Assembly (NCBI GenBank): GCA_016702505.1
Contig: JADJDU010000003.1
Span: 256,265 to 320,264, forward strand
From: Microthrixaceae bacterium
Lineage (GTDB): Bacteria > Actinomycetota > Acidimicrobiia > Acidimicrobiales > Iamiaceae
Direction: 5' to 3'
DNA: 64,000 nucleotides
Both the position numbers and the translations under genes were made by a program. Below, piece after piece: positions 15,913-54,696 of this stretch. How positions within the stretch are numbered: the first letter of the stretch is position 1; each line of letters opens with the position of its first letter. The notes beneath the pieces were generated by a model. The model was given only the letters and a program-made list of their open reading frames with translations. It was not told the origin of the DNA and did not search any database.

Positions 15913-15970
15913 AGGAGCTACCCGTGACCGAACCGACTCGAGCGCAAGCGTCGCAGCGATCGACAGACGA

Positions 15971-31378: not shown

Positions 31379-31399
31379 TACGGAACAAAGGACACCTAC

Positions 31400-32622: not shown

Positions 32623-35458
32623 ATGCAGCTGGTCATATTGGGAATGCACCGGTCCGGCACCTCGGGTGTCACCCGGCTGCTGAACATGGCCGGCGCCTAC
32701 TTTGGCCCCCCAGGGATCGCCACCGATGCCAACGAGGAGAACCCCAAGGGTTTCTGGGAACGCCGAGACGTGCGCGCCCTGTGCGACGGGCTCCTCCAGG
32801 GAGCCGGATTCGACTGGTTCCGACTCGGCGGCTTCTGAGCCGTCCGCCATCCCCGATGATCTACGTCAGGTCCAGGCAGAAGCCTTTGCTCATGTCCTAG
32901 ATGACCTGAACGCCCATCAGCCTTGGGTGGTGAAGGAACCGAGGCTCTGCCTGCTCATGCCGGTTCTGGAACACCTCCTCGACAGCGCGGTGTTCGTTCA
33001 CGTGTCGCGTGACCCCATCGAGGTGGCCCGATCCGTACACCACAGGAACAACCTCCCGATGGCGGGAGCCGTCGCCCTCTGGGAGACCTACACCCTCAGC
33101 GCCCTTTCGGCATCCGCAGGCCGCCCGCGGGCCCACGTCCGCCACGAGGAGGTCATGGCTGACCCGGTCGGCACCTTGAACCGCCTGATCGCTGACCTGG
33201 AAGCGTTGGGTGTGACCGGACTCGTCGCACCGGACCCCGAGGCGATAACCGACTTCATCGTTCCCAGCCTTCACCGCCAGCGCAGCGATCGCTCCAATCG
33301 GGAACACCACCTGAACGCCGACCAGCTCCACCTGGCCGACCTGTTGGACCGCAACCCACTGCCTGAGGTCCTGCCGCCACTGTCAGCAGGTGGGGCCGAC
33401 GCGCTTGCCGACCTCGTCCGCTTCGATGACGAGATCGTGGCCCGCAAGCAGGCCGAGCTCGACCAGCGGAGGGCACAGGCCGAGACCAGGCGGCTGACAG
33501 CCGAGACCCAAAGGCTTGAGCGCGCTATCGAGCGCATGGAAGCCACCCTGGACCATGAGCGAACCAGAAGGGCCGAACTCGGAGCGTCAGCCCTCGAATC
33601 GCTGGACCGAGCCGAGCGCGACATCAGGGCCATGACTGCTGGCCGGACCGCGACGGCCGCCGCCTACCTCACTGCCGCCCGCCGCACCGTGACACCTGGC
33701 GTCAGTCGGACCGACCCAACTCCGTTCTCCCGGGCCCTAGCCGGCGTCGAGAAGGGACGACGTCGCATTCGCGGGATGACCGCCGACTTACCCAGCACCT
33801 CGGTACGTACCACGACCCCTGGGATTGCTGAGGACCAAGCCGACCCCCCATCCAAACCTGAGACTCCGATCCAGCGGACCCGGCCTAGAACACCGAGCAG
33901 CGATCGACCGAAGGTGGCCGTACTGGCCTGGGACGTAGGGCACAACCCGCTGGGTCGAGCCAACGTATTGGCCGAGGTCTTGAGCGGTGATTACGAGGTA
34001 GAGCTCTGGGGCGCTCAGTTCGAGCGATATGGAAGCCGGATCTGGGCCCCGCTGCGAGACATCCCGACTCCTGTGAACGTCTTCCCCGGACGTCCCTTCC
34101 CCGACCACCTCGAGACGATGGAACAGGTCGCCGCCACCATCGATGCCGACGCCCTCTGGGTGTCCAAGCCTCGGCTGCCATCGTTCCTGCTCGGGGCATT
34201 GACCAAACAGCTCCGAAATCGACCACTGGTGCTGGACATCGATGACCACGAGCTGGCGTTCTTCGACGTCGACGAAGGGTTGGACATCAGATCGCTCTCA
34301 CCCCGACGCGGCGACAAGTCGCTGATTCTCCCCTTCGAGCGGGACTGGACCCGTGCCTGTGAGCCCTTGGTCGGTGGGGCAGATCTCCTCACCGTGTCCA
34401 ACGTCGCCCTCCAACAACGGTTCGGGGGCACGATCGTCCCCCACGCCCGGGACGAGGACATCTTCGACCCCGGAGTCGTAGACCGTGGAGCGGCTCGCCA
34501 TCGGCTGGGCATCGGGCCCAACGAGCGGGTTCTGCTCTTCGGGGGAACACCAAGGCTTCACAAGGGGATAATGGAGATCCTCACCGCGCTCGAGAAGCTC
34601 GGCGACCGTCGCTACCGGCTGATGGTGTTCGGAACCCGCGAGTTCGACGAGATGCGACCCCAGATCGGTGATTTGGCTCGATGGCTCCTACCCCTTCCTT
34701 ATCAGCCGTTCTCGGCGTTGCCCGAGGTGGTGGCAGCGGCCGACCTGGCCTGCATCCTCCAGAACCCCGAACATCCGGTCTCGGCGTACCAACTGCCGGC
34801 CAAGCTCACCGATGCGTTGGCCATGGGGGTGCCGGTCCTACTGCGGGAGACCCCACCGCTCCGTCCGATCATCGAGGCCGGGGCCGTCGCTGCTCTCCAG
34901 CCCGAAGACGACCTCGCAGATGCCATCGGTGCGGTATTCGAAGATGCCGAGACCACCTCTGAGCGGGTGGATGCCGGCCGCCGGCTGTTCCTGGACACGA
35001 TGAGCTATGGGGCGGTCCGCCACCAGATCCGCCCGGTGTTCGACTCGCTCATCAGCGATCCCCCCGCCCTATCTGCTGACCTCCGTGCCCTGATAGAGGT
35101 GCCAACGGAGTTGTTCGCCGGTCAGACCTCCTCGAGCCGCGAACCCCAGGCGTTCGCGCCAACCGTCGCGGCCTCGAGTCTCGGACCTGGCTGTACGGCG
35201 GCTCCCGGACCAGACGTCTCGGCCTGCCGGCCCGCAGCGACTACGTCGACCACGTCACCCGCGCACTGGCGAAGAAGGGCATCGGCGAGCGGCCATGGGT
35301 GCTTTGGGCATACCCGACAAATCCCGACCTCCCCCTTCTCATCGATCGTCTTCGTCCCGACGTGGTGTTGGCCGACGTGGTGGACGACAACCGGACCTGG
35401 TACTCACCGGGTACCGCCGAGCACGATCGGATCGACCAGAACTACCGCGACGTGCTGA
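32623..35458 (+). CDS. multidomain sulfotransferase / coiled-coil / GT4 glycosyltransferase fusion (frameshift at ~32835; region after ~35100 probably mis-framed)
   Basis: ORF 32623..32838 is the 5'-PSB motif MHRSGTSGVTRLLNMAG. The 32702.. frame continues with sulfotransferase KEPRLCLLMPVLEHL...HVSRDPIEVARSVHHRN. Coiled coil ~33400-33650, a Pro/Thr linker, then a GT4 domain at 33900-35050 (VAVLAWDVGHNP...GVPVLLRETP). Confidence 0.6.
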
Positions 35459-36129
35459 GCCGCTCCGACCTGGTCATCGCCAACTGCGAGCCGGCAGCCG
35501 CGGCCATGAAGGAGTTCGCCCCCGAGGTGCACGTGGTGCCCAATGGTCTCGAGCTCGATCCCCCGACGGTCACCGCCAAGATCGATGTGCGCGCTTTCGG
35601 CAGCCCGATCATCGGCTACGTGGGGAACCTCTCGTCCCGCATAGACATCGATCTGCTCGACGCCCTAGCCCGGGCACGACCTCGCTGGCAGTTCGTGTTC
35701 GTGGGCTCGACCCACCTGGACCCAGCCATCCTCCGCCTCGATGAGCACGCCAACGTTCATTTCCTCGGAGTTGTCCACCATCACCAGGCCAGAGCGATCA
35801 TGGCCGACTTCGATGTGGCTCTCATTCCCCACATCGACAACGAGATGACCCAGTCGATGAATCCACTCAAGGCTTTCGTGTACGCCTCCGTTGGTGTCCC
35901 GGTCGTGTCTACGCCCATCGCCAACCTGGGCGAACTAGGTGGGCTCATCTCGATCGCCAGCGGGGTCGACGGCTTCGTGACCGCCATCGAAGCCGAGCTG
36001 ACCAAGCCGCGCACCTCCGTCGACCGTGCCAGGCTCGAACCCCATTCCTGGGGGTCGCGACTGAAGTCGGTCCTGGATCTGATCGACGGCATCGGCCGTG
36101 GTGATTCGCCTTTGGGACCTAACAACTAG
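35299..36129 (+). CDS. glycosyltransferase group 1 C-terminal-domain protein; N-terminus may continue upstream to ~35080 in the same frame or belong to the preceding fusion protein
   Basis: GYVGNLSSRIDIDLLDALARARPRWQFVFVG...PLKAFVYASVGVPVVST is a GT-B C-domain. Upstream same-frame peptide ...RRLGLPARSDYVDHVTRALAKKGIGERPWVLW has no start codon. Confidence 0.5.
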   Translation: MLWAYPTNPDLPLLIDRLRPDVVLADVVDDNRTWYSPGTAEHDRIDQNYRDVLSRSDLVIANCEPAAAAMKEFAPEVHVVPNGLELDPPTVTAKIDVRAFGSPIIGYVGNLSSRIDIDLLDALARARPRWQFVFVGSTHLDPAILRLDEHANVHFLGVVHHHQARAIMADFDVALIPHIDNEMTQSMNPLKAFVYASVGVPVVSTPIANLGELGGLISIASGVDGFVTAIEAELTKPRTSVDRARLEPHSWGSRLKSVLDLIDGIGRGDSPLGPNN

Positions 36130-36187: not shown

Positions 36188-39100
36188 ATGTATCCGTTCT
36201 GGGATATCGCTGTCGCGCCAGCGCTCAAGGCCGCCAAATCACGAAGGATCGTGGAGATCGGTGCCCTCCGTGGGGAGACCACGGCGTTCATGCTCGCCGA
36301 CCTCGGAGCCGACACCGAGCTTCACGTGATCGACCCTGTTCCGGTCTTCGATCCGTCTGAGCACGAGGAGCAGTTCCCTGGTCGCTACATCTTCCACCGC
36401 GACCTGAGCCTCAACGTCCTGCCCGATCTCCCAGCGGTCGACGCCGCCCTGATCGACGGTGACCACAACTGGTACACGGTGTTCAACGAGCTGCGGCTGT
36501 TGAGCGAGACCGCCCGCGCCGCCGAGGCCCCACTGCCGCTCCTGGTCCTCCACGACGTCGGGTGGCCCTACGGCAGGCGGGACCTGTACTACGTCCCCGA
36601 GCAGATCCCCGAGGAGTTCCGCCAGCCCTACGCCGCTCAGGGAATGCTCAGGGGCCAATCCGAGCTGGCCGAGCGAGGCGGGCTGAACCCCACCAACTGC
36701 AACGCCACCCACGAAGGTGGGCCCCGCAACGGCGTCATGACCGCGGTCGACGACTTCATCGATGGCTACGACCGGCCGCTCCGACTCGTGTTCCTCCCCA
36801 CCTACTTCGGGCTGGCGATCGTGGTCGAGGAAACGGTGCTAGAGGCGCACCCGGCGCTCAGAGACCATCTCGACTGGCTCGAAGGCAGGGATGGTCAGGC
36901 CGCCTTGGTCGAGATGACCGAGGCCTCCCGGCTCGACACGCTCGTCATGCAGCACAGCGTCTACTTCACCGACAAGGAGCGGAGCGCGGCGGCCGCCGAC
37001 CGCTACCTCGGGCTGCTGGAGGGCGCCCTCCTCAACGAGCACTACATCGAACAGGAGATCCGCATCAGCTACCTGCTGGAGTGCAGCGAGCGCGGCATCA
37101 CCCCTCGACCCGAGGCACTTCGAGACCCAGCCCGCCAGCTCACCGAGGAGCTCCAGCGCCTTCGTCGGGCCAGACACGCCGGCGATACCGTCGACGATGC
37201 CGGGCCTGTGGGTGCCGCGTTCCCCTACACCACCGTCGGGCGCCAGCACCTCCGCCACCTTGTCCAGCTTCTCGACACCATCCATGCCGAAGCGGTGACC
37301 GGAGACCTTGTCGACATAGGCCCAGGACGCGGCGGTACCTCCATCCTTTTCCGGGGATACCTCGAGGCCTACGCCATCGACGTGCCCCGGGTATGGGTGG
37401 TCGACCGGTTCCGAGCTCGTCCAGCGCCATCCGATGATCCTCGGGCGACGTCTGTCGGTCGAAGTGGCGACAAGCCTGTAGAGGCCCAGAGTGCCTGGGA
37501 AGTCGTGGGAGGACCGGGACTGCCGGAACTGCTCGGGGACCTCAACAGCGTTCGCGAAGGTTTCCATTCCTTCGACCTACTCGATGACCAAGTTCGGTTC
37601 GTGGCCGGAGACGACCTCACCGCCCTGGAAGCCGCTCCCATCGAACGGATTGCGTTGCTCCACCTGGGTGAACGGTCGGCTTTGGACGTTGCCGCTGCCC
37701 TTGATCTGCTCTACGACCGTCTGACACTGGGTGCATTCATTGTGGTCGACGACTTTGACGACCCCGACCGCCGGGCTGCGGTGGAAGCGGTCCGGGCCCG
37801 ACATGGGTCCGACGAGGAGATCGTCACCATCGACCACGGCACCGTCATGTGGCGCAAGACCGAGAGGTCCCAGGCCGAGCTCGATGCGGCCGACGGAGCC
37901 TTGCCATCCTCAGACGATCGACCCACCGGCCCCGTGTTGGCCCCAGCACGAGGCTGGTTCCCGACCGACCTAACCGTGGTCGTGGTCTTCTACAACATGA
38001 AGCGCGAGGCAGCCCGGACGTTGCATTCGCTGTCCCGGGCCTACCAGCAAGGTATCGACGACATCACCTACGACGTCGTCGTCGTCGACAACGGCTCGGC
38101 CCCCGACCAGAAGCTCGATCCGGCCTGGGTCCGAAGCTTCGGCCCGGAGTTCCGGTTCATAGACATGGGCAGCGATGCCAAACCGTCGCCCATCCCGGCA
38201 CTTAACCGCGGGATCGCCGAAGGCCACGGCATCAACTACGCCCTCATGATCGACGGTGCCCACGTCCTCACCCCTGGCGTCCTTCGCCACGGCCTGGCCG
38301 GCCTGACCACCTATGCCCCCGCCGTCGTCGCCACCCAGCAGTGGTATGTGGGCCCCGGACAACAGGCCGATCTGGTGGCAGAGGGCTACAACCAGAGTTA
38401 CGAAGACGTCCTCTTCGACAAGATCAACTGGCCCTCAGATGGCTACCGCCTGTTCGACATCGGCCACTTCATCGGCGAGCGAGACTGGTTCGACGGCATG
38501 TGGGAGTCGAACTGCCTGTTTGCTCCCCGCAGCCTCCTCGAACAGGTCGGAGGGTTCGACGAACGGTTCTCTATGCCCGGTGGCGGATACGCCAACCTCG
38601 ACCTCTACGAGCGACTCGGCGCCAGCCCTGACGTCACGGTGGTGACCATGCTCGGTGAGGGGTCGTTCCACCAGGTCCACGGAGGTACGACCACCAATCT
38701 GTCCGGTGACGAGAAGCGCCACAACACCCTGGCCGAGTACTCCCAGCACTACCAGGATGTTCACGGTCGCCCGTTCCGCGGCAACGCCAAACCGGTGCAC
38801 TACGTCGGGTCCATGCCCCGTGAGGCAGCCCGCACAAAGGCCCGCCGTCGGGTTTCGCCCAACATGTTCAGCCTTCATGCGCCCGACCAGGTCGGCGGAG
38901 TACCCGAGAAGGCATCACCGATGCCGCAGGACCTGTGGTCGGAGTTCACCGACGCCTACTGGCACACCCTCAAGTGGCGCCAGACCCATTGGATGGGTCA
39001 GCGATTGTCCAAGCTTCCTGGAGACATGGTGATCATCCAGGAGATCCTCACCAAGGTCCGGCCCGACTGGATCGTCCACACCGGCACCGCCAACGGTGGA

Positions 39101-39583
39101 CTGGACTGGTTCCTGGCCACGATCTGCGACCTGCTCGACCACGGTCAGGTCATCTCCATAGACCGCAAGCTGCACGAAGACCTTCCCCGCCACGATCGCA
39201 TCACCTACATCGAGGGCGAAGCCCACCTTTCCAAGGTGAACAAGCAGGTCACCGACCTGACCGGTCCCGATAGCCATGCCGTGGTCATATTGGGCACCAA
39301 GGCCAGCTCAGCACGGACTTCGGCCGAGTTCCACATCTACGAGGACCTGGTCCCCGAGGGGTCGTACCTGATCGTCGAGGACACGATCGTCGGTGGCCAC
39401 CCGGTGTGGGGCAACTTTGGGGTCGGGCCCTACGAAGCTGTCAAGGGCATCACCGAAACCAGGGGAGACTTCGTATCCGACACATCCCTGGAGAAGTACG
39501 GCCTGACGTTCAACACCACCGGCTACCTCCGGCGGATCAGCAAGGTCCAACACACGGCGCGCCGAAAAGGGCGCAAACGCTGA
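36188..39583 (+). CDS. giant four-domain enzyme: CmcI-like MTase / TylF-like O-MTase / GT2 glycosyltransferase / CmcI-like (rhamnosyl-O-MTase-type) MTase
   Basis: 1131 aa. aa 1-200: IVEIGALRGETT...LIDGDHNWYTV. aa ~340-560: LVDIGPGRGGTSILFRGYLEAY...VWVVDRF. aa ~600-850: TVVVVFYNMKREAARTLHSL...YDVVVVDNGS (GT2). aa ~930-1131: VIIQEILTKVRPDWIVHTGTANGGLDWFLA...VEDT (CmcI family). Confidence 0.85.
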   Translation: MYPFWDIAVAPALKAAKSRRIVEIGALRGETTAFMLADLGADTELHVIDPVPVFDPSEHEEQFPGRYIFHRDLSLNVLPDLPAVDAALIDGDHNWYTVFNELRLLSETARAAEAPLPLLVLHDVGWPYGRRDLYYVPEQIPEEFRQPYAAQGMLRGQSELAERGGLNPTNCNATHEGGPRNGVMTAVDDFIDGYDRPLRLVFLPTYFGLAIVVEETVLEAHPALRDHLDWLEGRDGQAALVEMTEASRLDTLVMQHSVYFTDKERSAAAADRYLGLLEGALLNEHYIEQEIRISYLLECSERGITPRPEALRDPARQLTEELQRLRRARHAGDTVDDAGPVGAAFPYTTVGRQHLRHLVQLLDTIHAEAVTGDLVDIGPGRGGTSILFRGYLEAYAIDVPRVWVVDRFRARPAPSDDPRATSVGRSGDKPVEAQSAWEVVGGPGLPELLGDLNSVREGFHSFDLLDDQVRFVAGDDLTALEAAPIERIALLHLGERSALDVAAALDLLYDRLTLGAFIVVDDFDDPDRRAAVEAVRARHGSDEEIVTIDHGTVMWRKTERSQAELDAADGALPSSDDRPTGPVLAPARGWFPTDLTVVVVFYNMKREAARTLHSLSRAYQQGIDDITYDVVVVDNGSAPDQKLDPAWVRSFGPEFRFIDMGSDAKPSPIPALNRGIAEGHGINYALMIDGAHVLTPGVLRHGLAGLTTYAPAVVATQQWYVGPGQQADLVAEGYNQSYEDVLFDKINWPSDGYRLFDIGHFIGERDWFDGMWESNCLFAPRSLLEQVGGFDERFSMPGGGYANLDLYERLGASPDVTVVTMLGEGSFHQVHGGTTTNLSGDEKRHNTLAEYSQHYQDVHGRPFRGNAKPVHYVGSMPREAARTKARRRVSPNMFSLHAPDQVGGVPEKASPMPQDLWSEFTDAYWHTLKWRQTHWMGQRLSKLPGDMVIIQEILTKVRPDWIVHTGTANGGLDWFLATICDLLDHGQVISIDRKLHEDLPRHDRITYIEGEAHLSKVNKQVTDLTGPDSHAVVILGTKASSARTSAEFHIYEDLVPEGSYLIVEDTIVGGHPVWGNFGVGPYEAVKGITETRGDFVSDTSLEKYGLTFNTTGYLRRISKVQHTARRKGRKR

Positions 39584-39610
39584 CTACCCCGAGCTAACCC
39601 CCACCTTTGC

Positions 39611-40675
39611 TCAGAAGAGGATCGGTAGCTGCTCGGCCGGGTAGTGCGATGGCGAGAAGAACCAGTGCTCCAGCGCGTAGCGGTTGGTGTCCATCCCCGG
39701 AGAGATGCCGGTGCGGTGGAGCAGGAGATCGTCGAAGAGAAGAGCGTCACCAGCGTTGAAGACCGGCCGGATCACCGGTGCATCGATTGCCAACTCGTCG
39801 GCCAAACCGTCGCCCACCGCCCAGTCGAACAACGCCCCGTGAGAACCGGTCTCGACCAACTCGTCGAGGCGGCGGGGAATCCACTCCAGGCCAGGGGCCG
39901 TGGAGTCTCCCCCGCAGTCGGTGAGCGTCACCCAGACGTTGCAGCTACGGATCCCACGGCTCATGAACGCCCCGTCTTGGTGCCAGCCCGTTCCCGTTGT
40001 GTAGGGGACATGACGCAGAGTGCCCTTCTTGAGGGACAGGGCCGGGCGTTCCCCGAAGTACTCGGTGAGAACGGCCTGGAGGTTGGCACCCTCGAAGAAA
40101 TCGAGCAGGGTCTTGAGCGCCCGCGGTGAATCGCCGGTGTACATGGAGCCCTGGGGTACCAAGAAGTGACGGCCACCCATCACGTCGTACTGGCCGTAGG
40201 CCTCACTGGGCTCGAAGAACGAGCACCACACCTCGGAGCCGTCTGAGCTGGTGCCCTCCACCCGTGCCTTGAACGCCGCCAAGGACTTGTCGATCACGCC
40301 CTTGAACTGCTCGACCTGTTCGGCGTCGAGCAACCCGCGCACGAGGAGACAGCCGTGGTGGCGCACCGCAGATGCCAGCTTGTCGGTGGTCAGTTCCGAG
40401 GCATCGATCTCGGGTGGTTCTACGCATCCTTCGAAAAGGTCCGGAACCGAGGGGGGCCATGACTCCCGACCACCGCTGCGGGCCACCTGGCTGAAAGCTC
40501 GATGACGAAGCTCGACCATTCGAACCTCGAGGGCATCGTCGGGCCTGACCTTCAACGCGTTCGCATAGTGCTGCACCGCAGACTGAAGGTCTCCTTCCTT
40601 CTCTGCGGCTCGACCGGCCTCAAGGGCCGCATCGGCGTCTGCGTGGTCCGTGGCAAGGGTTCCCGGAGGCGTCAT
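39611..40675 (-). CDS. PhyH-superfamily Fe(II)/2-oxoglutarate-dependent oxygenase with N-terminal TPR-like segment
   Basis: GTGWHQDGAF (HxD), a second His in LLLHRTGISPGMDTNRYALE with the conserved Arg. Paralog of 41308..42303. Confidence 0.65.
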   Translation of the reverse strand: MTPPGTLATDHADADAALEAGRAAEKEGDLQSAVQHYANALKVRPDDALEVRMVELRHRAFSQVARSGGRESWPPSVPDLFEGCVEPPEIDASELTTDKLASAVRHHGCLLVRGLLDAEQVEQFKGVIDKSLAAFKARVEGTSSDGSEVWCSFFEPSEAYGQYDVMGGRHFLVPQGSMYTGDSPRALKTLLDFFEGANLQAVLTEYFGERPALSLKKGTLRHVPYTTGTGWHQDGAFMSRGIRSCNVWVTLTDCGGDSTAPGLEWIPRRLDELVETGSHGALFDWAVGDGLADELAIDAPVIRPVFNAGDALLFDDLLLHRTGISPGMDTNRYALEHWFFSPSHYPAEQLPILF

Positions 40676-40684
40676 GGCCGGAAG

Positions 40685-41311
40685 CTACTTCGACAACGGC
40701 CGGGCGGGAACCCCCACAACGGTCGTTTTTGGAGCGACATCTGTCACTACGACGGCGTTGGCGCCGATCTGGGCGTCCTCACCGATCTTGACCGGTCCGA
40801 TCACCTTGGCACCCGTGCCGATGTGAGCCCGGGCCCCGACGACAGCACCGTTCACATTGCCCTCCTTGAGGCCGATCGTGACCCACGGACGCACCTCCAC
40901 GTGCGGCCCGATCTCTACGATCCCGTCGATCACCACCGCCCCATGGGGAAGGTAGAGCCCAGGAGCGACTACCACCGGATCACCGATGCACACCTGGCCG
41001 ATCATCATGGCCAACCGATGGAGTATCGACGGCAGAATCGGGACCTCGTGAACCTGGAGCGTCGCCTTCAGCCGATAGCAGAGCAAAGCGGCGAAAGCGT
41101 CGCTGCGCCAACAAAGCCTGATCACCTGGAGGACTAGGTCAGTCCGGGACCGAAACTCGTAACGCTCACCCCTGAACAGGCAGAAGATGCGCGCGTCCTC
41201 GCGCACCGCCCGTCTGAACGATGGGAAACGACGCCGGAACTTGCGCATCAGATCCCGACGTTGCGCCTTGGTTGGCCCCGGGGTCGTTGCCTTCACCCTC
41301 CGCCCACTCAT
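40685..41311 (-). CDS. hexapeptide-repeat O-acyltransferase (CysE/WcaB/NodL family)
   Basis: SATase_N-like helical region followed by left-handed beta-helix hexapeptide repeats (IGDPVVVAPGLYLPHGAVVIDG...IGANAVVVTDVAPKTTVVGVPARP). Confidence 0.75.
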   Translation of the reverse strand: MSGRRVKATTPGPTKAQRRDLMRKFRRRFPSFRRAVREDARIFCLFRGERYEFRSRTDLVLQVIRLCWRSDAFAALLCYRLKATLQVHEVPILPSILHRLAMMIGQVCIGDPVVVAPGLYLPHGAVVIDGIVEIGPHVEVRPWVTIGLKEGNVNGAVVGARAHIGTGAKVIGPVKIGEDAQIGANAVVVTDVAPKTTVVGVPARPLSK

Positions 41312-42303
41312 ACGAGGATCGGGACGTAGCGCTCAGGGAAGCACGAAGGCGCGAAGAACCATGACTCCAGGGCGTACCGATCGGCAGTGAACTCCCGCTC
41401 CGACGAAGACCGGTGAACGAAGAAGTCATCGAAGAAGATCGCATCGCCAGGCGCAAACGACGGGGTCTCGGGCGGAGCGTCCACGGCCACCTCGTCGACG
41501 AGACCTTGGCCTATCGAGTTGGGGAAGATCGATCCCTTGGTGCCGGTCTCCAGTATCTCGTTCACCCTCTTGGGCACGATGTCCAAGCCCGGAGCGGGAT
41601 GGTCTCCACCGCAGTGCGACAACGACAGCCACAGGTCGATGGCCCTGATCCCCGCACCGATGAAGGCCCCATCTTGGTGCCAGGTGGGGGCCGATTCCCG
41701 CAGGCGCCGCAGAACGCACTTGTTGTAGGAGAGAGCCGGACGCTCCCCCAGATAGCCGGTCACGGTGTCGATAACGCCTTTGGCCCGAAAGATCTCCAGG
41801 ACCTCCAACATCATCTCTGGCGCATCGGCAACCAACATCCCTCCGACCTCGCGCACCCAGGCTCGTTCGGTGGGGACGCTGGCGGCATCTACCTGGAAGG
41901 GACGGTAGGACCCGTTGCCCTCTGGACCTCCAGCGCTGGGATCGTCGTCTCGGTCTCCCAGCACATCGAGTGCCCGGGCCTTCACCGCCGAGACCTCCTC
42001 GGGGGACAACAAGCCGCGGACTATCACGCCACCGTGGTGGAGGATGCTCCCTCCCACCACGTCAACCGAGATCTGATCAGGAATGATCTCGGGAATCCCG
42101 GTTACCTCAGGGAAGGGATCGGATAGGTCCGGCGGCCAAGATGCCCGCAGCGACGGACCTCGTTCCCGGCCGAAGGCATCATGACGAAGCCTCACGATCT
42201 GGCGGGCAAGGTCAGAGTCGGGGTTGTGGCGGTACTCCTCGGTGAGGATGTCGACCGCCGCCATGACCCGACCCCCACCGTCGGAAACCAACGAACCTGT
42301 CAT
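41308..42303 (-). CDS. PhyH-superfamily Fe(II)/2OG oxygenase, paralog of 39611..40675
   Basis: TWHQDGAF; FFVHRSSSEREFTADRYALESWFF. Confidence 0.65.
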   Translation of the reverse strand: MTGSLVSDGGGRVMAAVDILTEEYRHNPDSDLARQIVRLRHDAFGRERGPSLRASWPPDLSDPFPEVTGIPEIIPDQISVDVVGGSILHHGGVIVRGLLSPEEVSAVKARALDVLGDRDDDPSAGGPEGNGSYRPFQVDAASVPTERAWVREVGGMLVADAPEMMLEVLEIFRAKGVIDTVTGYLGERPALSYNKCVLRRLRESAPTWHQDGAFIGAGIRAIDLWLSLSHCGGDHPAPGLDIVPKRVNEILETGTKGSIFPNSIGQGLVDEVAVDAPPETPSFAPGDAIFFDDFFVHRSSSEREFTADRYALESWFFAPSCFPERYVPILV

Positions 42304-42938
42304 GCGGATGTCCTCCGTGTCGATGCACCCTGGGGCGCCTGATCTTCCGGCGCTATCACCGGGGTCGCCTGGGGTTCCTTCTTGCTGTTTGCGCCCACCG
42401 GACGGGCCGGTACGCCAGCCACCCGACTGTGCGCCGCCACGTCGCCGGTGACCACCGCGTTGGCGCCTATTCGGGTGTGGGCTCCAACCGATGCCGGTCC
42501 GTTGATGACCGCGCCAGTACCAACCCTCACATCGGTCCCGATGGTCACCTCTCCTCCAGAGGAGTCAATGGTGGACCACGGGAACATCACAACGCCGTCA
42601 GCCAGGCGAACCGGTCCGCGTAGGTCCACCTGACCATGGGCCAGGTACAGCCCTGGCCCCACCACCGCTTCGGGCCCGATGTGAACCTGGGCCACGACGG
42701 CGGCGGCCACCTTCATGAGGCGAGGAACCAACGGAACGCCATGCTGGCGGGCAGAGGCCCCAATTCGGTAACAGACCTGGGCCAGGTAGGCATCGCTTTC
42801 GAGAGCGAGCCTCACCATCTGCCCGGCGGTCACCCAACGGTTGCCCATGCGGTGGTACTCGCCCCTGAACCGGGCCGCGGCTCTGGCATCCGCGACCAAG
42901 GCCGAAACGAGCGGCGGCGATTCAGAGTTGGTGGGCAC
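42300..42938 (-). CDS. hexapeptide-repeat O-acyltransferase (CysE/WcaB family), paralog of 40685..41311
   Basis: Hexapeptide repeats ...IGANAVVTGDVAAHSRVAGVPARP. A 4-nt overlap couples it to the downstream oxygenase. Confidence 0.75.
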   Translation of the reverse strand: MPTNSESPPLVSALVADARAAARFRGEYHRMGNRWVTAGQMVRLALESDAYLAQVCYRIGASARQHGVPLVPRLMKVAAAVVAQVHIGPEAVVGPGLYLAHGQVDLRGPVRLADGVVMFPWSTIDSSGGEVTIGTDVRVGTGAVINGPASVGAHTRIGANAVVTGDVAAHSRVAGVPARPVGANSKKEPQATPVIAPEDQAPQGASTRRTSA

Positions 42939-43079
42939 GATGGTGTGATCTACCGGCGGGCTGACGGACGGGGACCATCCCGGGACCAGGGAGGTGGGGG
43001 GATGGTAGCGGGAGCACGACGGTTGATCCGCGTGACATCGGGCCCTTCTGGTCGGGTCCTTTTGACCTACCGCCCGAGC

Positions 43080-43922
43080 TCAACCCAACGGCTTTCGCCA
43101 GTACGCCCCGGTCCAATCCACCGGGTGGATCTCGGCCTCTATCGAATGCTTCTTCCGATAGTCGTGAACCGCCTCCTGGCAGGCAGGAATGCAGCCGTAG
43201 TCGTCGATGATGACGAACCCGCCGGGTGAGACCCGCGGCTCGAGGTTGACCAAGGCGTCCATGGTCGACTCGTAGAGATCTCCGTCGAGCCTAAGGACAG
43301 CGACATCACCTATGGGAGCGGTGGGCAGGGACTCGGAGAACCACCCCTCCACGAACCTGACCTGGTCGTCGAGCAGGCCATAGCGGGCGAAGTTCGCCTT
43401 CACCTGTTCGACCGATACCGCCAACCCCAGGTCCAGAATCGCCTTGGCATCGGGGTTGGAGACCTGCATGGATGCATCAGCCGGGTAACGGTCCGGGTCT
43501 GGTTCGGGCAGGCCTTGGAACGAATCGCACACCCATACGGTTCTGTCGGTGACACCGAGGGTGGCGAGTACCGCCTTCATGAGAATGACCGTGCCCCCAC
43601 GCCACACCCCGGTTTCGACGAGGTCACCTCGAACCCCCTCGGCGACAACTCGCCTCACCAGAGCCTCGACGTTGTCCAACCGGGCCCGGCTCACCATCGT
43701 CTCAGCGCTTCCCGGTATCCAGTCCTGGCCGATCGTCGATCGATCATCAGCGCTCATCCGTCGCACCAGCCGCCACCCGTTGGCGTGAAGAACATCCCAG
43801 ACATCGTTGGGGGGGCCAAGGACCTCACTTGGCTGCCAGTGCAAGACATCGAGGACCTCATCGTCGGGGAAGAGGTCTCGGGTCAGGCAACCCTTCAGTA
43901 GGTCCAGGTATCGCTGGGCCAT
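43080..43922 (-). CDS. TylF/MycF-family class I SAM-dependent sugar O-methyltransferase
   Basis: MAQRYLDLLKGCLTRDL...TMVSRARLDNVEALVRRVV...GDLVETGVWRGGT...VWVCDSFQGLPEPD...VLRLDGDLYEST...GFVIIDDYGCIPACQEAV closely matches TylF/MycF. Confidence 0.8.
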   Translation of the reverse strand: MAQRYLDLLKGCLTRDLFPDDEVLDVLHWQPSEVLGPPNDVWDVLHANGWRLVRRMSADDRSTIGQDWIPGSAETMVSRARLDNVEALVRRVVAEGVRGDLVETGVWRGGTVILMKAVLATLGVTDRTVWVCDSFQGLPEPDPDRYPADASMQVSNPDAKAILDLGLAVSVEQVKANFARYGLLDDQVRFVEGWFSESLPTAPIGDVAVLRLDGDLYESTMDALVNLEPRVSPGGFVIIDDYGCIPACQEAVHDYRKKHSIEAEIHPVDWTGAYWRKPLG

Positions 43923-44027
43923 CGCGTTGTCGCCGGTTGGAGGATCAATGGTGGGGCTGGGCACGGCGGGCAGGATAGATCGCTCAGAGCACACCGATCG
44001 GTTCGTTGTGGCCCGGCACACCTGGGC

Positions 44028-45172
44028 TCACGGGGTGTCGCCGTCGCCACCTTCGCCACCCTGGTTCGCCATGAGGTGAGCGATCAGCTTCTGACGCACC
44101 TCCTCATTGGTCTCAGCCAACTGGGCGAACAGGATCTTCTCGTGCTCCTCGATCGAGACGGTGGTGAGGGTCCAGCCCTCCCGGCCGTGAGCAGCCCCGG
44201 GACCACCCCGATACGGCACCGCCGGAGCATCATCGACCACGAAATCCCACTCGGCATAAAAGTCCTTACGAGTCCAAGCCAACGTCGAAGGCGTCTCACC
44301 CGGACGCTGAGTCCGCAACGGCCCCACGAACACCTGACCCAACCCAACCCCAGAACCAGCACCCATCAAACCAGGCGGCGGACGATCGAAATACGTCCGC
44401 CAATACCGCTCCGAGAAGAACAACGCGCAGTAATCCAACCGGTGGTACTCATCGATGAACATGTACCCGTCATCGACCAGATACGGCCACAAACCAATCA
44501 CACACTCATGGAAACTGGACTGATAATCCACATCCACATACGCACACACGATCGGCTCAGAGTGCGAACCCATCGTGTCCGAGAACCACCCCTTACGGAA
44601 CTCACACACCTCCACCGCCCCAAACCGCGTGACGTTGGAACGCACCTCCTCCAACTCACCCTTGAACGCCCCCTCACCCATCTCACTGGCCCAATGATCG
44701 CCCTCCACCGCCGGCGGCAACCCTTCGAAGCTGTCATAGACGATCAAGCTCCGACCCGCCGCCTGAGCGATCAACGACAAGTTCGCAGTAGTACCACCCT
44801 TCCAACACCCCGCCTCCACCATCACACCTCAACCGAGCGCGGCACCGACAACACCTTCGCCGCAATGGCCAGATGCCCCCGATAGCTCAACCCGGTCTGG
44901 ATCTTGGTCGTGTTCCGACGCATGCGTCGCGCCAACCCGAACCGCTTACGCCACGTCAACCCGTGCGAAGGATCGATCGGAGCCCCATAGAACAAGAACA
45001 ACGTCAAATGAAACCACGACGCCGCCTCATAGGCGTCCGCAACCCGCCTCACCAACCGCGTACGCCGACCTTTCGAAAAACGCTGCGAAACCGCGGCCCG
45101 AACACGCCGACGAAGTCCAAACCCCTTAGATGACACGAGGCGCGACCGTAGTGCCCCCCTGCCACCGCGCAC
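44028..45172 (-). CDS. TylF-family O-methyltransferase, apparently split by a frameshift at ~44822 (C-terminal part 44028..44825; possible N-terminal part 44822..45172)
   Basis: C-part: VEAGCWKGGTTANLSL...IVYDSFEGLPP...DVDYQSSFHECV. The upstream ORF ends ...LAIAAKVLSVPRSVEV* with its stop overlapping the C-part start codon (ATGA). The N-part match to TylF is weak. Confidence 0.5.
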
Positions 45173-45191: not shown

Positions 45192-47144
45192 TCAAGGAGC
45201 CGTCAGCGACACGTGGAACATCGGATCTCGACCAGGGTGATGGCCGATCGAGGGTCCTGGGTGGTCAGGAATCCTCGACTGCCCGGCCAGGCAGAAGCCC
45301 AGCCCGATCGGACCAGCGGTCGGACGAACCGGTGCCGATCCCAACTGCACCGACGGCCAGTCACTCGCCGGATCACCCCCCATGAAGGTCGGATCCGACC
45401 CCGAGGCGACCAGCACCGCCACCCACCACCGGACGCCGGCGTCGAGCACCACCGCATCCACAAGCGCCGCCCCGAACACCCCCGACCCTTCCAGCTCGAT
45501 CCCCGCTGGTCCGGTAGAGGTGACCACCGCACCTGGCCGCCCATCCGCGGCGGTGGACACCACTGCGGCCGTCACCGAAACACCGGCCTGCGCCGACACC
45601 ACTTCCAACCAGATGTCGGTGGCCCGGGCCGGTGCCGCCAGCACCGGCAACGGCATCCACATCACCACACCTCGCTCCAGCACCGTCCCGACCCCTGACG
45701 CCCGCAGCGACGAAACGGCGCATGGGACGGGGGCCAGGAATCCTCCCTGGCTCCCCATCGAGTTGGCGAGAACCGTGGTTGCGCCTCCCGGAAAGCTAGC
45801 GATCAACTCGGCCCGCCCCCCGGTGTCCCGAGCGGTGAGCACCGGGTCAGGCAATCCGGAATCCACCCGTTCGGCAGGGGTCAACCGCAACCGCGCCAGA
45901 TCTACCTGCCCGGATCCACTGTTGACGGCCAAGCTCCCGACCCCCGCCCGGGAGAGGAAGGTGTCCATCGGCATGGAGCCGCCGGGTCCAAGCCCAAGGG
46001 TGGGGCCTGGGAGCCCAATGAGATCCAGGACAGGACGAGACGCTGACAGGCCCCAAGCCAGCTCCGGATCATCCTGGTGTACCCGGCCGGCCAGCACCGC
46101 TCCACCCAGTTTTGTGGAGACCGAAATGGTCCCAGCGCCTGGGCTCCACTCCTGTTCGCGGTGCAGCGAACTGACCACCTGCGATAGCAGTGATGCAGCC
46201 ACGATTCCGGGGGCGATAGCCGCGGCAGCATGACCCGCAGCGATCGCCGACGTGATCGATGCCGGATGGACACCGTCGAGCGTCGGGAGCCGGCCAAGAG
46301 CACCGGCTCCATCGATCAGCAGGCACCCCAGGCGTTGGGCCACCCGACGTCCCGCCTCGGCGTGGTCCGGTGTGAACTGCGAGCTGATCGGGGCCAACCA
46401 AAGGGCAACGTCCGTCTCTGGGCGCCGCGCCTGGATGCCGGTGACCAGCCGGGAGACATCGCCCTCATAGTCATCATCGTTGGTGCCGGTGCCGACCACC
46501 ACCAGGTCCGGTCGGATCGTGTCCAGAGCATCGAGAACCCAGCCGGGGTTCTCGAGGAAATCGAGGCTGGTGCTTCCACTGCGGACGGCGGGCCAGACCC
46601 TCACTCCCTGGTGCGCGTTGTGCTGGTGGACGTAGACGCCCTCCAACACCGAGGTACCCCCCTGAGATTCGATCACCAACTCCACCGGAGACGATCCGTC
46701 GGACCTGGTGAACAACGAGAGTCGCGAATGAGCCACGACCCCCTCCGTGTCGATGACGCCCATGACGCCGTCACCCCAAGTGACCCTCAACTGACCGGCA
46801 TCGGGTCGACGCGTCCAAACGACGGAGAGGGCTTGACCGCCAACCTCGACCCGCGCCCTCTGACCCACCTCCAGCAAAACCGACCGACCGCCGAGGCCAC
46901 ATTCCGGGTCCGGAGGTGCCCCTGCCGCGCTGGACAACGGGTTCACGTAGGCGTTGTCGCTGGCCCTGCGGTACTGGACGGTCTCGACCCGATTCGAGAG
47001 CAGCTCACCGAGTTGCCACGGAATCGGGTTACCCGTCGCGTTCAGCTCGCTGATCGAGTCTCCGAGCCAGATGATGTTCGCTATCGCCGAGCCCGCTTGG
47101 GCGTCACGGAGCTTCGCCGCCCAACGGGACTCCTCGATCAACAC
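45192..47144 (-). CDS. SGNH/GDSL hydrolase-family protein with ~350-aa Gly/Ala/Val-rich C-terminal extension
   Basis: Block I IIWLGDSISE, block III VVVGTGTNDDD, block V DGVHP. C-terminal half is repetitive, small-residue-rich and of unknown fold. Confidence 0.65.
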   Translation of the reverse strand: MLIEESRWAAKLRDAQAGSAIANIIWLGDSISELNATGNPIPWQLGELLSNRVETVQYRRASDNAYVNPLSSAAGAPPDPECGLGGRSVLLEVGQRARVEVGGQALSVVWTRRPDAGQLRVTWGDGVMGVIDTEGVVAHSRLSLFTRSDGSSPVELVIESQGGTSVLEGVYVHQHNAHQGVRVWPAVRSGSTSLDFLENPGWVLDALDTIRPDLVVVGTGTNDDDYEGDVSRLVTGIQARRPETDVALWLAPISSQFTPDHAEAGRRVAQRLGCLLIDGAGALGRLPTLDGVHPASITSAIAAGHAAAAIAPGIVAASLLSQVVSSLHREQEWSPGAGTISVSTKLGGAVLAGRVHQDDPELAWGLSASRPVLDLIGLPGPTLGLGPGGSMPMDTFLSRAGVGSLAVNSGSGQVDLARLRLTPAERVDSGLPDPVLTARDTGGRAELIASFPGGATTVLANSMGSQGGFLAPVPCAVSSLRASGVGTVLERGVVMWMPLPVLAAPARATDIWLEVVSAQAGVSVTAAVVSTAADGRPGAVVTSTGPAGIELEGSGVFGAALVDAVVLDAGVRWWVAVLVASGSDPTFMGGDPASDWPSVQLGSAPVRPTAGPIGLGFCLAGQSRIPDHPGPSIGHHPGRDPMFHVSLTAP

Positions 47145-47156
47145 GGTTCGGAGTTG

Positions 47157-49829
47157 TCAGTTGGCCATCCCGTGCGCGGCCAGCGTCCGCTCAACGGGTG
47201 AGTGCAGCTCCCAGTGGAGGTACTCGTCAATGTCGGTATCGAAACCCAGTCCGATATCGCAGAGCCGGTGAGGATCCTCAACCGTGAAGGAGGCAGGACC
47301 ATAGGACTCCAGCGGAGGGACGTGGTCGGCCCAGTCTGTCCTGTGCCCGGAATCTTTGGCCTTCAACACGTCGCGGTACCAGGCTCCGACATCGTGACCC
47401 ACCTCGATCGTGTAGGGGAACTTCCGACCCTGGGCGGGGAGGACGGCATGTTGGGCCGCCAAGACAGCATCGAGCCCTGAACCAGGCGGCACGCCGAGTC
47501 GCTCGACCGCGAAGCGCCCCATCTCGTCGATGAAGAGGCGCCAGCTCACGGGAGGCACCATGGTCACCGGCACCACCCGGGTAGCGGTGGTGATCGTGGG
47601 GTAGGCCTCCGGCTCGTTCTGGGTCAGCTCTCGCAACGCCTCGATCAGGTCTGCTTCTCGCAGGCCAACGGTATGGCGCAGATACCTGGCCGTGAGGCGC
47701 AACACCGCGAAGTTCTCCATCAGGCGGAACACCGCTCGGAGCTGGAGCATCACGTCGTAATCCTCCCGGGTGAAGCTGGAGGACGAGACCACCAGCGCAC
47801 GTCCGAGTCCTGCTGACCCCCGAGACGGGATCGCGGGCGACGGCGATCGGTCGATTCGCTCGGTCCGGATCTGGTTCTCAGTCCTGTAGGACGGTTCGTT
47901 CATCGGGCTGTTGATCAGCATCTCGGTCTGGAAGACCTTTGCGTTGATCTCACGATCTATGCACTGCTGGAAGTCCTCTCGCACCGAGGCGGTCGTAGCT
48001 CCGGGTAGACCGATCATGAGATCAACCATCAGCGGAAGCTGGGCCTGGCGGAACTCACGGGCGAGATCGTCGTACTTCTCGACCTTGATGTTCTTCCGCC
48101 GAATGGTGGCCAGCGTGTCGTCGTCCATCGACTGCAACGAGAGAAGCCCTTCGGTGACAACGCCAGCTCCGGCCATCACCTGAACGATCTTCTGAAGGTA
48201 CTTGACCGTGTTCTTGGCGTAGTTGGTGACGAAGCTTCCGGGATAGCCCTTGGTCGTATACAGCTCCGCGACCTTCTCCGCGATCTGGACGTCCTGGTCG
48301 AAGATGCCGAAGTTGGCGTCGCAGAGGAAGATCTTCTCGACCTTGTTGTCTGCGCACCACTCGAGCTCCGCGAAGATCCGCTCCAGGTCGAACTTCCTGA
48401 TCCTCGAGGCAGTGCTCGATCCCCAGTCGCAGTAGGTGCAGCTGTAGGGACACCCACGGTTTGTCTCGATCATGGCCGTATTGATCACACCGCCACCGAA
48501 CGGCTCGTACAGGCCTGTCAGATACGGCGATGGCACCACGTTGATGTCGGTCAGCCGGTCGCGGTCCGCCGTCCGCACGACGCCATTGGGGCCTCGGTAA
48601 CTCAGGCCCGGCACCGAATCGAGGACCGAGAGGTCTCGCTCCTCGTCATCTCTAATGGGTGCCAACGCGGCCAACAGCTCGGCAAAGGTCACCTCGCCTT
48701 CGCCATGGACCACCACATCGATGAACGGGTTGGCAGCGAAGTAGGCCTCGACATCGCCCGGGTACTTGGGGGAGTCGGGTCCGCCATGGATCGTGATCGC
48801 CCTCGAGCTGCGATCCTTGATGATCTTGGAGCTCTCCAGGTTGACGCCGTGGGACCACACGTAGTTGCTGAACATGAAGACCGAGCCGTCGTCTATCAGC
48901 GACTCAAGCACGTCCGGGTACATGAAGGTGGCCGGGAGGAAGTCGTAGCTCTCCAAGAGCTGACCCTCGTTCCATGCCGATGCATATGACACCAACATCC
49001 CGAGTGACAACGGCATGATCAGCTGGTCATAGATCGGGATGACCGCAGTTCGGCGAACACCGGTCTCCGCCTGCTGGGCGTAGCGCTGCTCGATTCGATC
49101 TTCGAAATCAGATCGCAGGTGGGCCTGGGTTTCGATCGCCTTGGCGAACAGGTGACTAGCAATGAACTCCTGGCGAGAGGAGGTCTGCATCGACTCGGAT
49201 CGTCCGACGATGCGCGATGCCAGGAGGATCCCGGCCGTTTCCATGAAACGGTCCTCAGTCAGCGCCGCCCGGCCCGCCTGCTCGACGTGGGCCGCAAAGG
49301 CCGCCTCGACCGATTGCGAGGTGCTCAAGTTCACGGCAGCGAGCACCTGAGCTGCGCTCAACACCGCCCGGACACCTCCGTCGTGGTCGAGCGCGTAGTA
49401 GCTGCCATCAGCCACCGTCAAGAGGATCGGGCTCCCGATGTCGAGATTGTCAGACATCGCTACTGCTTCGGCTGCCCCCTGTCCCTCCGACGAACCGCGG
49501 GACGGCACCACCGCTCTGTTGGAGCCCTCGACCAACTTGCGCTCCCGCAAGTAGAAGAGCGTGACGTGAAGGTCGAATGCGGGCACGCTCCAGTCAGCCG
49601 ATATCTCCTCGATCAGGGGAGAAACGTCTCGAACCTCGGGCCCCGACAACTCAGCCATCAAGGCTAGATCGGCACCGGCGATCACAATCTCGGGAAGCAT
49701 GTCGATCTTGGGAATGCACACTCCTTCGCGACGGAGCATGACGGTGGCGAAACGGCTGAGCCGCGCGCCGTCTGCGGATGATGCTTCAGAGTGTTGGCTC
49801 TCACGCGTAGTTGAGATGTCGGTCATCAA
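47157..49829 (-). CDS. B12-binding radical SAM enzyme (class B rSAM) with ~250-aa N-terminal and ~250-aa C-terminal extensions
   Basis: Cobalamin-binding region (ITIHGGPDSPKYPGDV...VVVHGEGEVTF) followed by IETNRGCPYSCTYCDWG (CxxxCxxC). Confidence 0.85.
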   Translation of the reverse strand: MMTDISTTRESQHSEASSADGARLSRFATVMLRREGVCIPKIDMLPEIVIAGADLALMAELSGPEVRDVSPLIEEISADWSVPAFDLHVTLFYLRERKLVEGSNRAVVPSRGSSEGQGAAEAVAMSDNLDIGSPILLTVADGSYYALDHDGGVRAVLSAAQVLAAVNLSTSQSVEAAFAAHVEQAGRAALTEDRFMETAGILLASRIVGRSESMQTSSRQEFIASHLFAKAIETQAHLRSDFEDRIEQRYAQQAETGVRRTAVIPIYDQLIMPLSLGMLVSYASAWNEGQLLESYDFLPATFMYPDVLESLIDDGSVFMFSNYVWSHGVNLESSKIIKDRSSRAITIHGGPDSPKYPGDVEAYFAANPFIDVVVHGEGEVTFAELLAALAPIRDDEERDLSVLDSVPGLSYRGPNGVVRTADRDRLTDINVVPSPYLTGLYEPFGGGVINTAMIETNRGCPYSCTYCDWGSSTASRIRKFDLERIFAELEWCADNKVEKIFLCDANFGIFDQDVQIAEKVAELYTTKGYPGSFVTNYAKNTVKYLQKIVQVMAGAGVVTEGLLSLQSMDDDTLATIRRKNIKVEKYDDLAREFRQAQLPLMVDLMIGLPGATTASVREDFQQCIDREINAKVFQTEMLINSPMNEPSYRTENQIRTERIDRSPSPAIPSRGSAGLGRALVVSSSSFTREDYDVMLQLRAVFRLMENFAVLRLTARYLRHTVGLREADLIEALRELTQNEPEAYPTITTATRVVPVTMVPPVSWRLFIDEMGRFAVERLGVPPGSGLDAVLAAQHAVLPAQGRKFPYTIEVGHDVGAWYRDVLKAKDSGHRTDWADHVPPLESYGPASFTVEDPHRLCDIGLGFDTDIDEYLHWELHSPVERTLAAHGMAN

Positions 49830-54400: not shown

Positions 54401-54696
54401 GTACACCGTGTACCAGTTGTGATCGCCGTCGATCAGCGCTGCATCCATGGCCGGCAGTTCACCGAGGACATCGACGCTCAGGGCTCGGTGGAACACGTAC
54501 TGACCGGCGAACTCCCGTTCATGCTCGGCGGGATCAAACGCCGGCTTCGGGTCGATCACGTGTAGCTCGGTCTCAGGCCCGAGCGTCTCGATGATCTGGC
54601 GGGTGTTCTCTCCCCGGAGGGCACCGATCTCGACCAGGCGTTTGACTCCGCCCGCCTCTAGCACGGGAGCGATGACGTCGTTCCAGAAGGGGAACA
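51416..54696 (-). CDS. giant four-domain MTase / MTase / GT2 / MTase enzyme, paralog of 36188..39583
   Basis: Track ORF 51416..55099 carries a spurious 134-aa N-extension. The real start MFPFWNDVIAPVLEAGGVKRLVEIGALRGENT... is about 70% identical to the paralog over the first 200 aa, with the same domain order through the CmcI-like C-terminus (VAYQEIISTVRPDWIIETGSKDGG). Confidence 0.85.

Follow-up and report, generated by a model that had tools for sequence, protein, structure and literature searches.

The window, a 64,000-nt stretch of DNA from an Acidimicrobiales bacterium (contig JADJDU010000003.1), carries a run of four consecutive open reading frames (ORFs) on its minus strand at 39611-42938. 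Genes for a hexapeptide acyltransferase (AT) and for a PhyH-type oxygenase (Ox) alternate in the order AT-A, Ox-A, AT-B, Ox-B, where A denotes the pair at 41308-42938 and B the pair at 39611-41311. This alternation had been described in a first-pass annotation of the window and is borne out by the ORF list. We lean towards the interpretation that such an AT-Ox pair is a two-gene tailoring cassette, accessory to Wzm/Wzt-dependent glycan loci, and that its two enzymes form a dyad acting on one position of the glycan.

The association of the two genes was analyzed across genomes. When one genome per species was scanned, 539 relatives of Ox were returned, and 77 Ox loci were examined (58 from Actinomycetota, 16 from Proteobacteria, and 3 classified as "other"), with Acidimicrobiia, Solirubrobacterales, Alpha- and Gammaproteobacteria, Myxococcota, Acidobacteriota, and Binatia as source groups. 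Based on tblastn coordinates, an AT gene on the same strand adjoins Ox in 22 of the 77 loci (21 of 58 in Actinomycetota, one of three in the "other" group, none of 16 in Proteobacteria). Seen from the AT side, at six loci on long contigs, Ox is immediately downstream in five and two genes away in the sixth. The first-pass annotation had called the oxygenase strictly coupled to the acyltransferase; this applies from the AT side (all six loci, and the fusions described next) but not from the Ox side. AT-Ox fusion proteins of 493-560 amino acids (aa) form 22 distinct clusters at 90% identity, which come from several data sources and from contigs of up to 317 kb. All 22 retain the oxygenase motif WHQDG; in most, a strict pattern also picks up the distal His/Arg motif and the histidine of AT. 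One further in-frame AT-Ox fusion occurs at locus L040, and one fusion is arranged the other way round, as Ox-AT. Because such gene fusions recur, we consider a functional link between AT and Ox to be strongly supported.

AT-A (42300-42938, 212 aa, GTG start) and AT-B (40685-41311, 208 aa, its N-terminus extended by a basic stretch) are CysE-like acyltransferases of the left-handed beta-helix type. Ox-A (41308-42303, 331 aa) and Ox-B (39611-40675, 354 aa) are candidate Fe(II)/2-oxoglutarate (2OG) oxygenases of the PhyH superfamily, Ox-A being a divergent one. A 4-nt overlap had been claimed for every junction and is found at two of the three: AT-A/Ox-A (cATGAc, 42300-42303; the ATG is preceded, at a distance of about 8 nt, by GGAGGA) and Ox-A/AT-B (gtATGAg, 41308-41311). 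AT-B and Ox-B do not overlap, the TAG of the former being followed by 9 nt and the ATG of the latter. A scan of 39300-43400 for promoters and terminators gave nothing that exceeded the shuffled expectation. Hydrophobic segments and signal-like N-termini are absent from all four proteins, which are thus likely to be soluble and located in the cytoplasm. The ratio of nonsynonymous to synonymous substitution rates (dN/dS), computed against the 79% identical locus L007, is 0.10 for Ox-A, 0.08 for AT-B, and 0.07 for Ox-B. The four genes are working genes under purifying selection; with dN/dS values of 0.07-0.10, their being pseudogenes or redundant copies was rejected.

Identical or near-identical loci are carried by six other assemblies from an Acidimicrobiales-like organism. 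At locus L001 (Joint Genome Institute [JGI] 3300056999, 11739-12697), Ox-B is in three pieces, and comparison of the locus with the window gives 62 gap openings; this breakage most likely reflects indel errors of long reads and not biology.

Both oxygenases contain the motifs WHQDGAF and HR...RYALE(H/S)WFF, as had been noticed in the first-pass annotation. The absence of a complete 2-His-1-carboxylate triad would have spoken against their being Fe/2OG oxygenases, but the triad is complete in both (H232/D234/H320 in Ox-B, H209/D211/H297 in Ox-A), and its columns are invariant in an alignment of 30 sequences (Ox-B, Ox-A, and 28 homologues). Also invariant in this alignment are the entire W-H-Q-D-G string and an arginine 12 residues beyond the distal histidine (R332 in Ox-B, R309 in Ox-A). 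Judged by its position, which we take to correspond to Arg275 of PhyH, this arginine is the putative ligand of the C5 carboxylate of 2OG. Further invariant basic residues are R57, R169, K217, R221, R243, and R269. A halogenase function was ruled out, the motif being HxD rather than HxA/G. With the Pfam profile PhyH (PF05721, cut-off 22 bits), Ox-B scores 33.8 bits and passes, whereas Ox-A falls short at 18.6 bits. No curated NCBIfam model covers either protein.

AlphaFold models Ox-B confidently, at a predicted local distance difference test (pLDDT) of 90.8 and a predicted template modeling score (pTM) of 0.90. In the model, a three-helix N-terminal unit (residues 14-61) that resembles tetratricopeptide repeats (TPR) is joined by a linker, which carries a conserved WPP motif, to a double-stranded beta-helix of the PhyH type. 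Ranked structure matches to this model are proline hydroxylase H11 (listed value 19.8), EctD (18.6), human PhyH (17.8), KanJ (16.9), PHYHD1 (16.8), EvdO2 and SnoK (16.7), AviO1 (15.7), EvdMO1 (14.9), and HygX (14.0), and the Foldseek result agrees with this ranking. When Ox-B was searched as a single sequence against the PDB sequences, only TPR artefacts caused by the N-terminal helix pair were returned. An Ox profile matched PhyH-family enzymes among the solved structures weakly (best PrhA, E 8e-4), and when 1.84 billion representatives were searched by profile, 589 clusters (50% identity) were obtained at E <= 1e-30. From sequence and model, we regard Ox-A and Ox-B as secure members of the PhyH superfamily, in which they form a separate, uncharacterized clade, and Fe(II)/2OG-dependent oxidation is their predicted activity.

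Both acyltransferases pass the cut-off of the hexapeptide profile PF00132 (27 bits), with 39.2 bits for AT-B and 36.8 bits for AT-A. Scores with the serine O-acetyltransferase models stay below the equivalog cut-offs, at 93.4 (AT-B) and 79.9 bits (AT-A) for EpsC (NF041874, cut-off 150) and at 79.6 and 61.8 bits, respectively, for CysE (TIGR01172, cut-off 210.65). Because these scores are so far below the cut-offs, the automatic JGI name "serine O-acetyltransferase" is considered unreliable; 2255 homologues of AT-B were found. H123 of AT-B aligns with the catalytic histidine of solved serine acetyltransferases, its equivalent in AT-A is H101, and the column is nearly invariant. A nearby aspartate (IGD) is nearly invariant in the family and absent from AT-A. 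The position that we take to be that of the catalytic aspartate of CysE is occupied by Cys in AT-B and by His in AT-A, and what is presumably the serine-binding loop of CysE is shortened or missing. The ATs share with CysE and EpsC, and with related sugar O-acetyltransferases of the hexapeptide family, the left-handed beta-helix, a helical N-terminal region, and the catalytic-type histidine; they differ by a family-specific N-terminal motif and by having their gene constantly beside, or fused to, that of an oxygenase.

The N-termini of AT-A and AT-B had been described as diverged. This is correct for the first ~25-47 residues, where AT-B has its basic extension, but beyond this stretch the family motif P..F/L..A.V..DAR...RGE is common to both. 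In other assemblies, the start of AT-A is called such that a protein of 182 aa results; we favor the longer version with a GTG start because the shorter one is devoid of conserved residues of this motif. The AT family was also encountered as the C-terminus of proteins whose preceding domain has neither a Pfam nor an Ox-profile match. There are eleven such protein clusters, ten with an unexplained domain of ~290-355 aa (P0494, P0495, P0500, P0503, P0506, P0507, P0512, P0514, P0516, and P0519; proteins of 492-551 aa) and one with a domain of ~210 aa (P0515; 411 aa).

Ox-A and Ox-B share 38% amino-acid identity (E 9e-76), and AT-A and AT-B share 42% over 159 aa (E 3e-35), which points to paralogy far beyond chance; no further copies of either gene were found in the window. 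The first-pass annotation had taken the arrangement as a tandem duplication, and the AT-Ox-AT-Ox order together with the motifs common to the copies would fit a recent local event that left redundant or decaying copies. We consider this exceedingly improbable. Apart from the low protein identities and the purifying selection on all copies, the DNA of the two pairs shows only two weak blastn matches (76-82 nt, ~70% identity). Ox-B is 47-53% identical to homologues from other genomes and AT-B up to 60%, compared to 38% and 42% to their counterparts within the window. In neighbor-joining trees, whose lack of bootstrap support counts against our interpretation, the A and B copies are not sisters: Ox-A and its orthologues from L007 and L008 group with the copies from L044 and Solirubrobacterales, apart from the Ox-B clade, and AT-A branches outside all of the other ATs, so that the A copies are on deep branches of their own. 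AT-Ox pairs recur among many uncultured bacteria, often as one fused protein, as a search for the gene pair revealed. The order AT-Ox-AT-Ox is retained only in L007 and L008, where the orthologues of Ox-B have 88% and 71% amino-acid identity, respectively, and its retention in these relatives likewise speaks against a recent event; L009 has AT-AT-Ox. The two pairs are therefore best regarded as old, anciently diverged copies and not as a fresh duplication. That both members of pair A are divergent fits an ancient duplication as well as a second acquisition of the whole pair, and proves neither.

Judged by its gene content, the region in which the four genes reside is a heavily methylated cell-surface glycan locus of the Wzm/Wzt type. 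The following assignments are from Pfam. Convergent with Ox-B, and separated from it by a 27-nt gap, is the plus-strand gene for a giant protein of 1131 aa with the domains Methyltransf_24, TylF, GT2, and CmcI (36188-39583). A paralogue of 1227 aa, which is 51% identical according to tblastn, is encoded on the minus strand at 51416-55099 and is next to a GT2 glycosyltransferase (50479-51402, minus strand). Two genes for TylF-type sugar O-methyltransferases (43080-44825, minus strand; TylF scores 315 and 57.9 bits) are directly upstream of AT-A. The four genes form the end of a 15.5-kb minus-strand array which is headed by the second giant methyltransferase-glycosyltransferase and continues with the GT2 gene, an 890-aa radical S-adenosylmethionine (SAM) protein, a GDSL-like protein, and the two TylF genes. 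On the plus strand at 29735-31378, a Wzm/Wzt-type exporter is encoded in which the ABC-2 membrane domain and the ATPase are fused into a single polypeptide. Other genes in the surroundings code for a sulfotransferase-GT1 protein, several GT4 glycosyltransferases, a CapD-like dehydratase, a nucleotidyltransferase, an RmlB-like dehydratase, and an SPFH protein. Related loci carry Wzt with a Wzt_C domain, Wzm, GT2-WsaF, PMT_2, Acyl_transf_3, UDP-glucose dehydrogenase, and sulfotransferases. Sugar O-methyltransferases, sulfotransferases, and genes for 6-deoxyhexoses abound in loci of this kind. Such a gene set bears the signature of a glycan that is finished on a lipid carrier in the cytoplasm and is then exported by an ATP-binding cassette (ABC) transporter. 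Soluble enzymes that depend on the cofactors SAM, 3'-phosphoadenosine 5'-phosphosulfate (PAPS), acetyl-CoA, and 2OG could tailor a glycan in this compartment.

Some additional observations were made in this region. The presence of two giant enzymes, two oxygenases, and two acyltransferases suggests, by their count, a locus with two parallel tailoring sets. The SPFH/Band 7 protein (400 aa; exporter region 29735-32602) comes next after the exporter, a position that is kept in other assemblies. The radical SAM protein and the protein with the weak GDSL-like match (650 aa) occupy 45192-49829; radical SAM homologues occur in five related Ox loci, and radical SAM genes of the SPASM type in ten loci. 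The sulfotransferase-GT1 gene (32702-36129) is split into ORFs of 918 aa and 276 aa with a break at 35154/35155, where ~277 nt are absent from the window that are present in five assemblies (L002-L006), which have a single protein of 1260 aa. The second TylF methyltransferase (region 44028-45172) has 265 aa, with its start overlapped by an ORF of 116 aa, compared to 341 aa in L002. One indel distinguishes the window from L002 between 44300 and 52302, so that an N-terminal frameshift in this gene is possible. Just upstream of the glycan locus are a phage-type integrase (13733-15325), a TrwC relaxase-helicase (15683-19315), and a patch of low GC content (0.558) at 20-22 kb; the region 13733-22000 looks like an integrative mobilizable element.

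A different partner of Ox was encountered in Proteobacteria. A GSCFA protein, which belongs to the SGNH superfamily, is encoded in 9 of the 16 proteobacterial Ox loci; in four, its gene immediately precedes Ox. GSCFA-Ox fusions have ~680 aa (cluster P0261, with Rhodanobacter spathiphylli B39 and Rhodanobacter sp. FDAARGOS 1247, and P0364), and a cluster of 20 such fusions includes cultured Rhodanobacter strains; in R. spathiphylli, the fusion is of the type WP_157582078. At the Rhodanobacter locus L074, GSCFA and Ox are separate, overlapping genes (8896-11014). The gene order is an ABC-transporter ATPase, which is a tblastn match to the exporter of the window, a double GT2, GSCFA and Ox, and then, in the opposite direction, a Methyltransf_24 protein and a GT2-CmcI protein, followed by a metB-like gene for a Cys/Met pyridoxal phosphate (PLP) enzyme. 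This resembles, by gene order, the metB side of the Xanthomonas lipopolysaccharide (LPS) cassettes. For these cassettes (strain BXO8), PhyH-family genes have been reported by annotation only (10.1101/2022.03.02.482478). The Rhodanobacter GSCFA-Ox fusion adjoins what looks like an LPS O-antigen cassette. In Proteobacteria, a second and unrelated acyl-handling fold thus seems to take the place of AT beside Ox. The enzymes that are fused to Ox or encoded directly upstream of it (hexapeptide acetyltransferase, SGNH/GSCFA, and SAM methyltransferase) are all of types that would act on hydroxyl substituents.

In the mechanism that we propose, AT and Ox would both be cytoplasmic and would modify one and the same position of the glycan while it is still lipid-linked and not yet exported. 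Ox would oxidize a C-H bond using Fe(II), 2OG, and O2, and AT would esterify a hydroxyl group using acyl-CoA. Ox may create the hydroxyl group that AT then acetylates; alternatively, Ox may oxidize a substituent (acetyl or methyl) that its partner has just installed. Hydroxylation followed by O-acylation of a sugar is plausible, and the data agree just as well with the reverse order. Each of the two cassettes would have a target site of its own, and these sites may correspond to the two giant methyltransferase-glycosyltransferases. What the substrate is, which step comes first, what product is formed, and how the cassettes relate to the two giant enzymes are inferred. The predicted role of Ox is similar to that of KdoO and LpxO, which are Fe/2OG hydroxylases at the cytoplasmic face that tailor a cell-envelope glycolipid (LPS). 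These belong to other 2OG-oxygenase families, act on 3-deoxy-D-manno-octulosonic acid (Kdo) or on an acyl chain of lipid A, and are not known to have an acyltransferase partner.

Precedents by analogy exist for both orders. In cephamycin C biosynthesis, CmcJ hydroxylates and CmcI then caps the new hydroxyl group (PMC2938197), which may serve as a model for hydroxylation before capping. As in the Ox loci, there is a genetic association between an Fe/2OG oxygenase and a methyltransferase domain of the CmcI family (PF04989), and it is by this association that the systems are likened. They differ in that the CmcI domain here is part of a giant GT2-containing protein and in that the substrate is a beta-lactam there and presumably a sugar here. 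The partner-first order, in which a substituent is installed and then oxidized, may have its precedent in the PhyH-like oxygenases of orthosomycin biosynthesis (AviO1, EvdO1, EvdO2, HygX, and the fusion EvdMO1), which act on methylated oligosaccharides (PMC13374393). Their gene clusters, like the loci described here, carry several oxygenase paralogues and many glycosyltransferases and sugar O-methyltransferases; EvdMO1 is a fusion of the oxygenase to a partner enzyme (a methyltransferase), and we count the carbohydrate substrate as a likeness to the one predicted for Ox. However, there is no specific relationship in sequence (best E 0.85, EvdO2) or structure beyond the common superfamily fold, HygX is an H-x-G variant whereas Ox has the canonical HxD triad, and Ox has its own N-terminal three-helix unit. 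Furthermore, the latter belong to antibiotic clusters and Ox to Wzm/Wzt cell-surface glycan loci. A further analogue of the partner-first order may be seen in PHYHD1 and FJS, which are PhyH-family demethylases of 2'-O-methyl nucleosides (PMC12709175). Unlike Ox, to which they have 13% identity, they act on free nucleosides in catabolism and have neither the context of a glycan locus nor an AT partner.

Several points weigh against an AT-Ox dyad acting on a glycan. Neither the AT nor the Ox family has a characterized member, and no glycan structure is available for any carrier; the activity of GSCFA is likewise not known (PMC9487903). The best structure matches of Ox-B are small-molecule hydroxylases (proline hydroxylase, EasH, EctD) at 12-20% identity, and the modeled fold does not point to a polymer as substrate. 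Two thirds of the Ox loci lack an adjacent AT, and the oxygenase can therefore work without it. The commonest neighbor of Ox is in fact the GT2-CmcI-type methyltransferase-glycosyltransferase, which has a homologue in 55 of the 77 loci and is usually immediately beside Ox and convergent with it. A homologue of GT2-CmcI, Methyltransf_24, or TylF is within 1.5 kb of Ox in 34 loci, including those of Proteobacteria that are devoid of AT. In Actinomycetota, this is the giant Methyltransf_24-TylF-GT2-CmcI protein, often accompanied by a separate GT2; its proteobacterial counterpart is divided between two proteins, one with Methyltransf_24 and one with GT2-CmcI. A separate GT2 glycosyltransferase is near Ox in 45 of the 77 loci, in the arrangement Ox>GT2<giant methyltransferase. 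Because this set is the commonest neighbor, and because a Methyltransf_11-Ox fusion with three members exists, the primary partner of Ox may be methylation rather than acylation. Ox could then oxidize O-methyl groups of sugars, resulting in oxidative demethylation or in a cyclization of the methylenedioxy or orthoester type, with the ATs being independent decorators encoded in the same operon. At least ten methyltransferases work beside the orthosomycin oxygenases (PMC13374393), and the demethylation of 2'-O-methyl ribose by PHYHD1 and FJS (PMC12709175) is chemistry of this kind within the PhyH family. Even so, we consider this rather unlikely: AT-Ox fusions, with 22 clusters, far exceed the methyltransferase-Ox fusions seen so far, and the position directly upstream of Ox is taken by AT and by GSCFA.

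The pair might instead act on a small precursor, such as a nucleoside diphosphate (NDP) sugar, an acyl-CoA, or a free amino acid, so that a hydroxylated acyl or aminoacyl substituent (glycolyl derived from acetyl, or a hydroxy-amino acid) would be attached later. The closest profiles and solved structures of AT, which are those of serine O-acetyltransferases (EpsC, CysE), would agree with this, and the invariant residues R57, R169, K217, R221, R243, and R269 of Ox might suit an anionic nucleotide or CoA. But AT scores far below the equivalog cut-offs and presumably has no serine-binding loop, and Ox is linked most tightly to glycosyltransferase-methyltransferase proteins and not to genes for NDP-sugar synthesis. 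Moreover, many loci carry two to four Ox paralogues, and up to four per locus fit several sites on a polymer better than one precursor; we thus regard action on a precursor as improbable. Still further down in probability, and in our view very unlikely, is that Ox hydroxylates residues of a surface protein (S-layer type) which are then glycosylated by the GT2 enzymes. The TPR-like three-helix unit would suit a protein hydroxylase, and related loci contain WsaF-like and PMT_2 genes, families that are typical of protein O-glycosylation systems. However, no conserved candidate for a target protein is encoded beside the gene, and a protein substrate would hardly account for the fusions of Ox with acetyltransferase, SGNH, and methyltransferase partners.

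If AT and Ox do form a tailoring dyad, the cassette would represent glycan tailoring that is assembled from known enzyme superfamilies, with a chemistry that is possibly new. Fe/2OG oxygenases have seldom been implicated in the tailoring of cell-surface polysaccharides. Here, an Ox clade is found in several phyla, in glycan loci that depend on ABC transporters, and is repeatedly fused to three kinds of hydroxyl-substituting enzymes. From these fusions, in which the partner is an acetyltransferase, an SGNH/GSCFA protein, or a methyltransferase, we predict a two-step modification that has not been cataloged by glycan chemists. As a tentative suggestion, in which we place considerably less confidence than in the cassette itself, Ox and its acetyltransferase, SGNH, or methyltransferase partner may perform a post-assembly oxidative chemistry that has not yet been described for bacterial cell-envelope polysaccharides. 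Such chemistry might, for example, convert an O-acetyl or O-methyl group to a glycolyl, methylenedioxy, or orthoester-type group, or hydroxylate a C-H bond of a deoxysugar that is subsequently capped. GSCFA, an SGNH family without known activity, gains a testable context, and because cultured Rhodanobacter strains carry the GSCFA-Ox fusion, the hypothesis is experimentally approachable. If it is true, the surface glycans of Acidimicrobiia, of Solirubrobacterales, and of some Xanthomonadales would bear a modification that has so far gone unrecognized.

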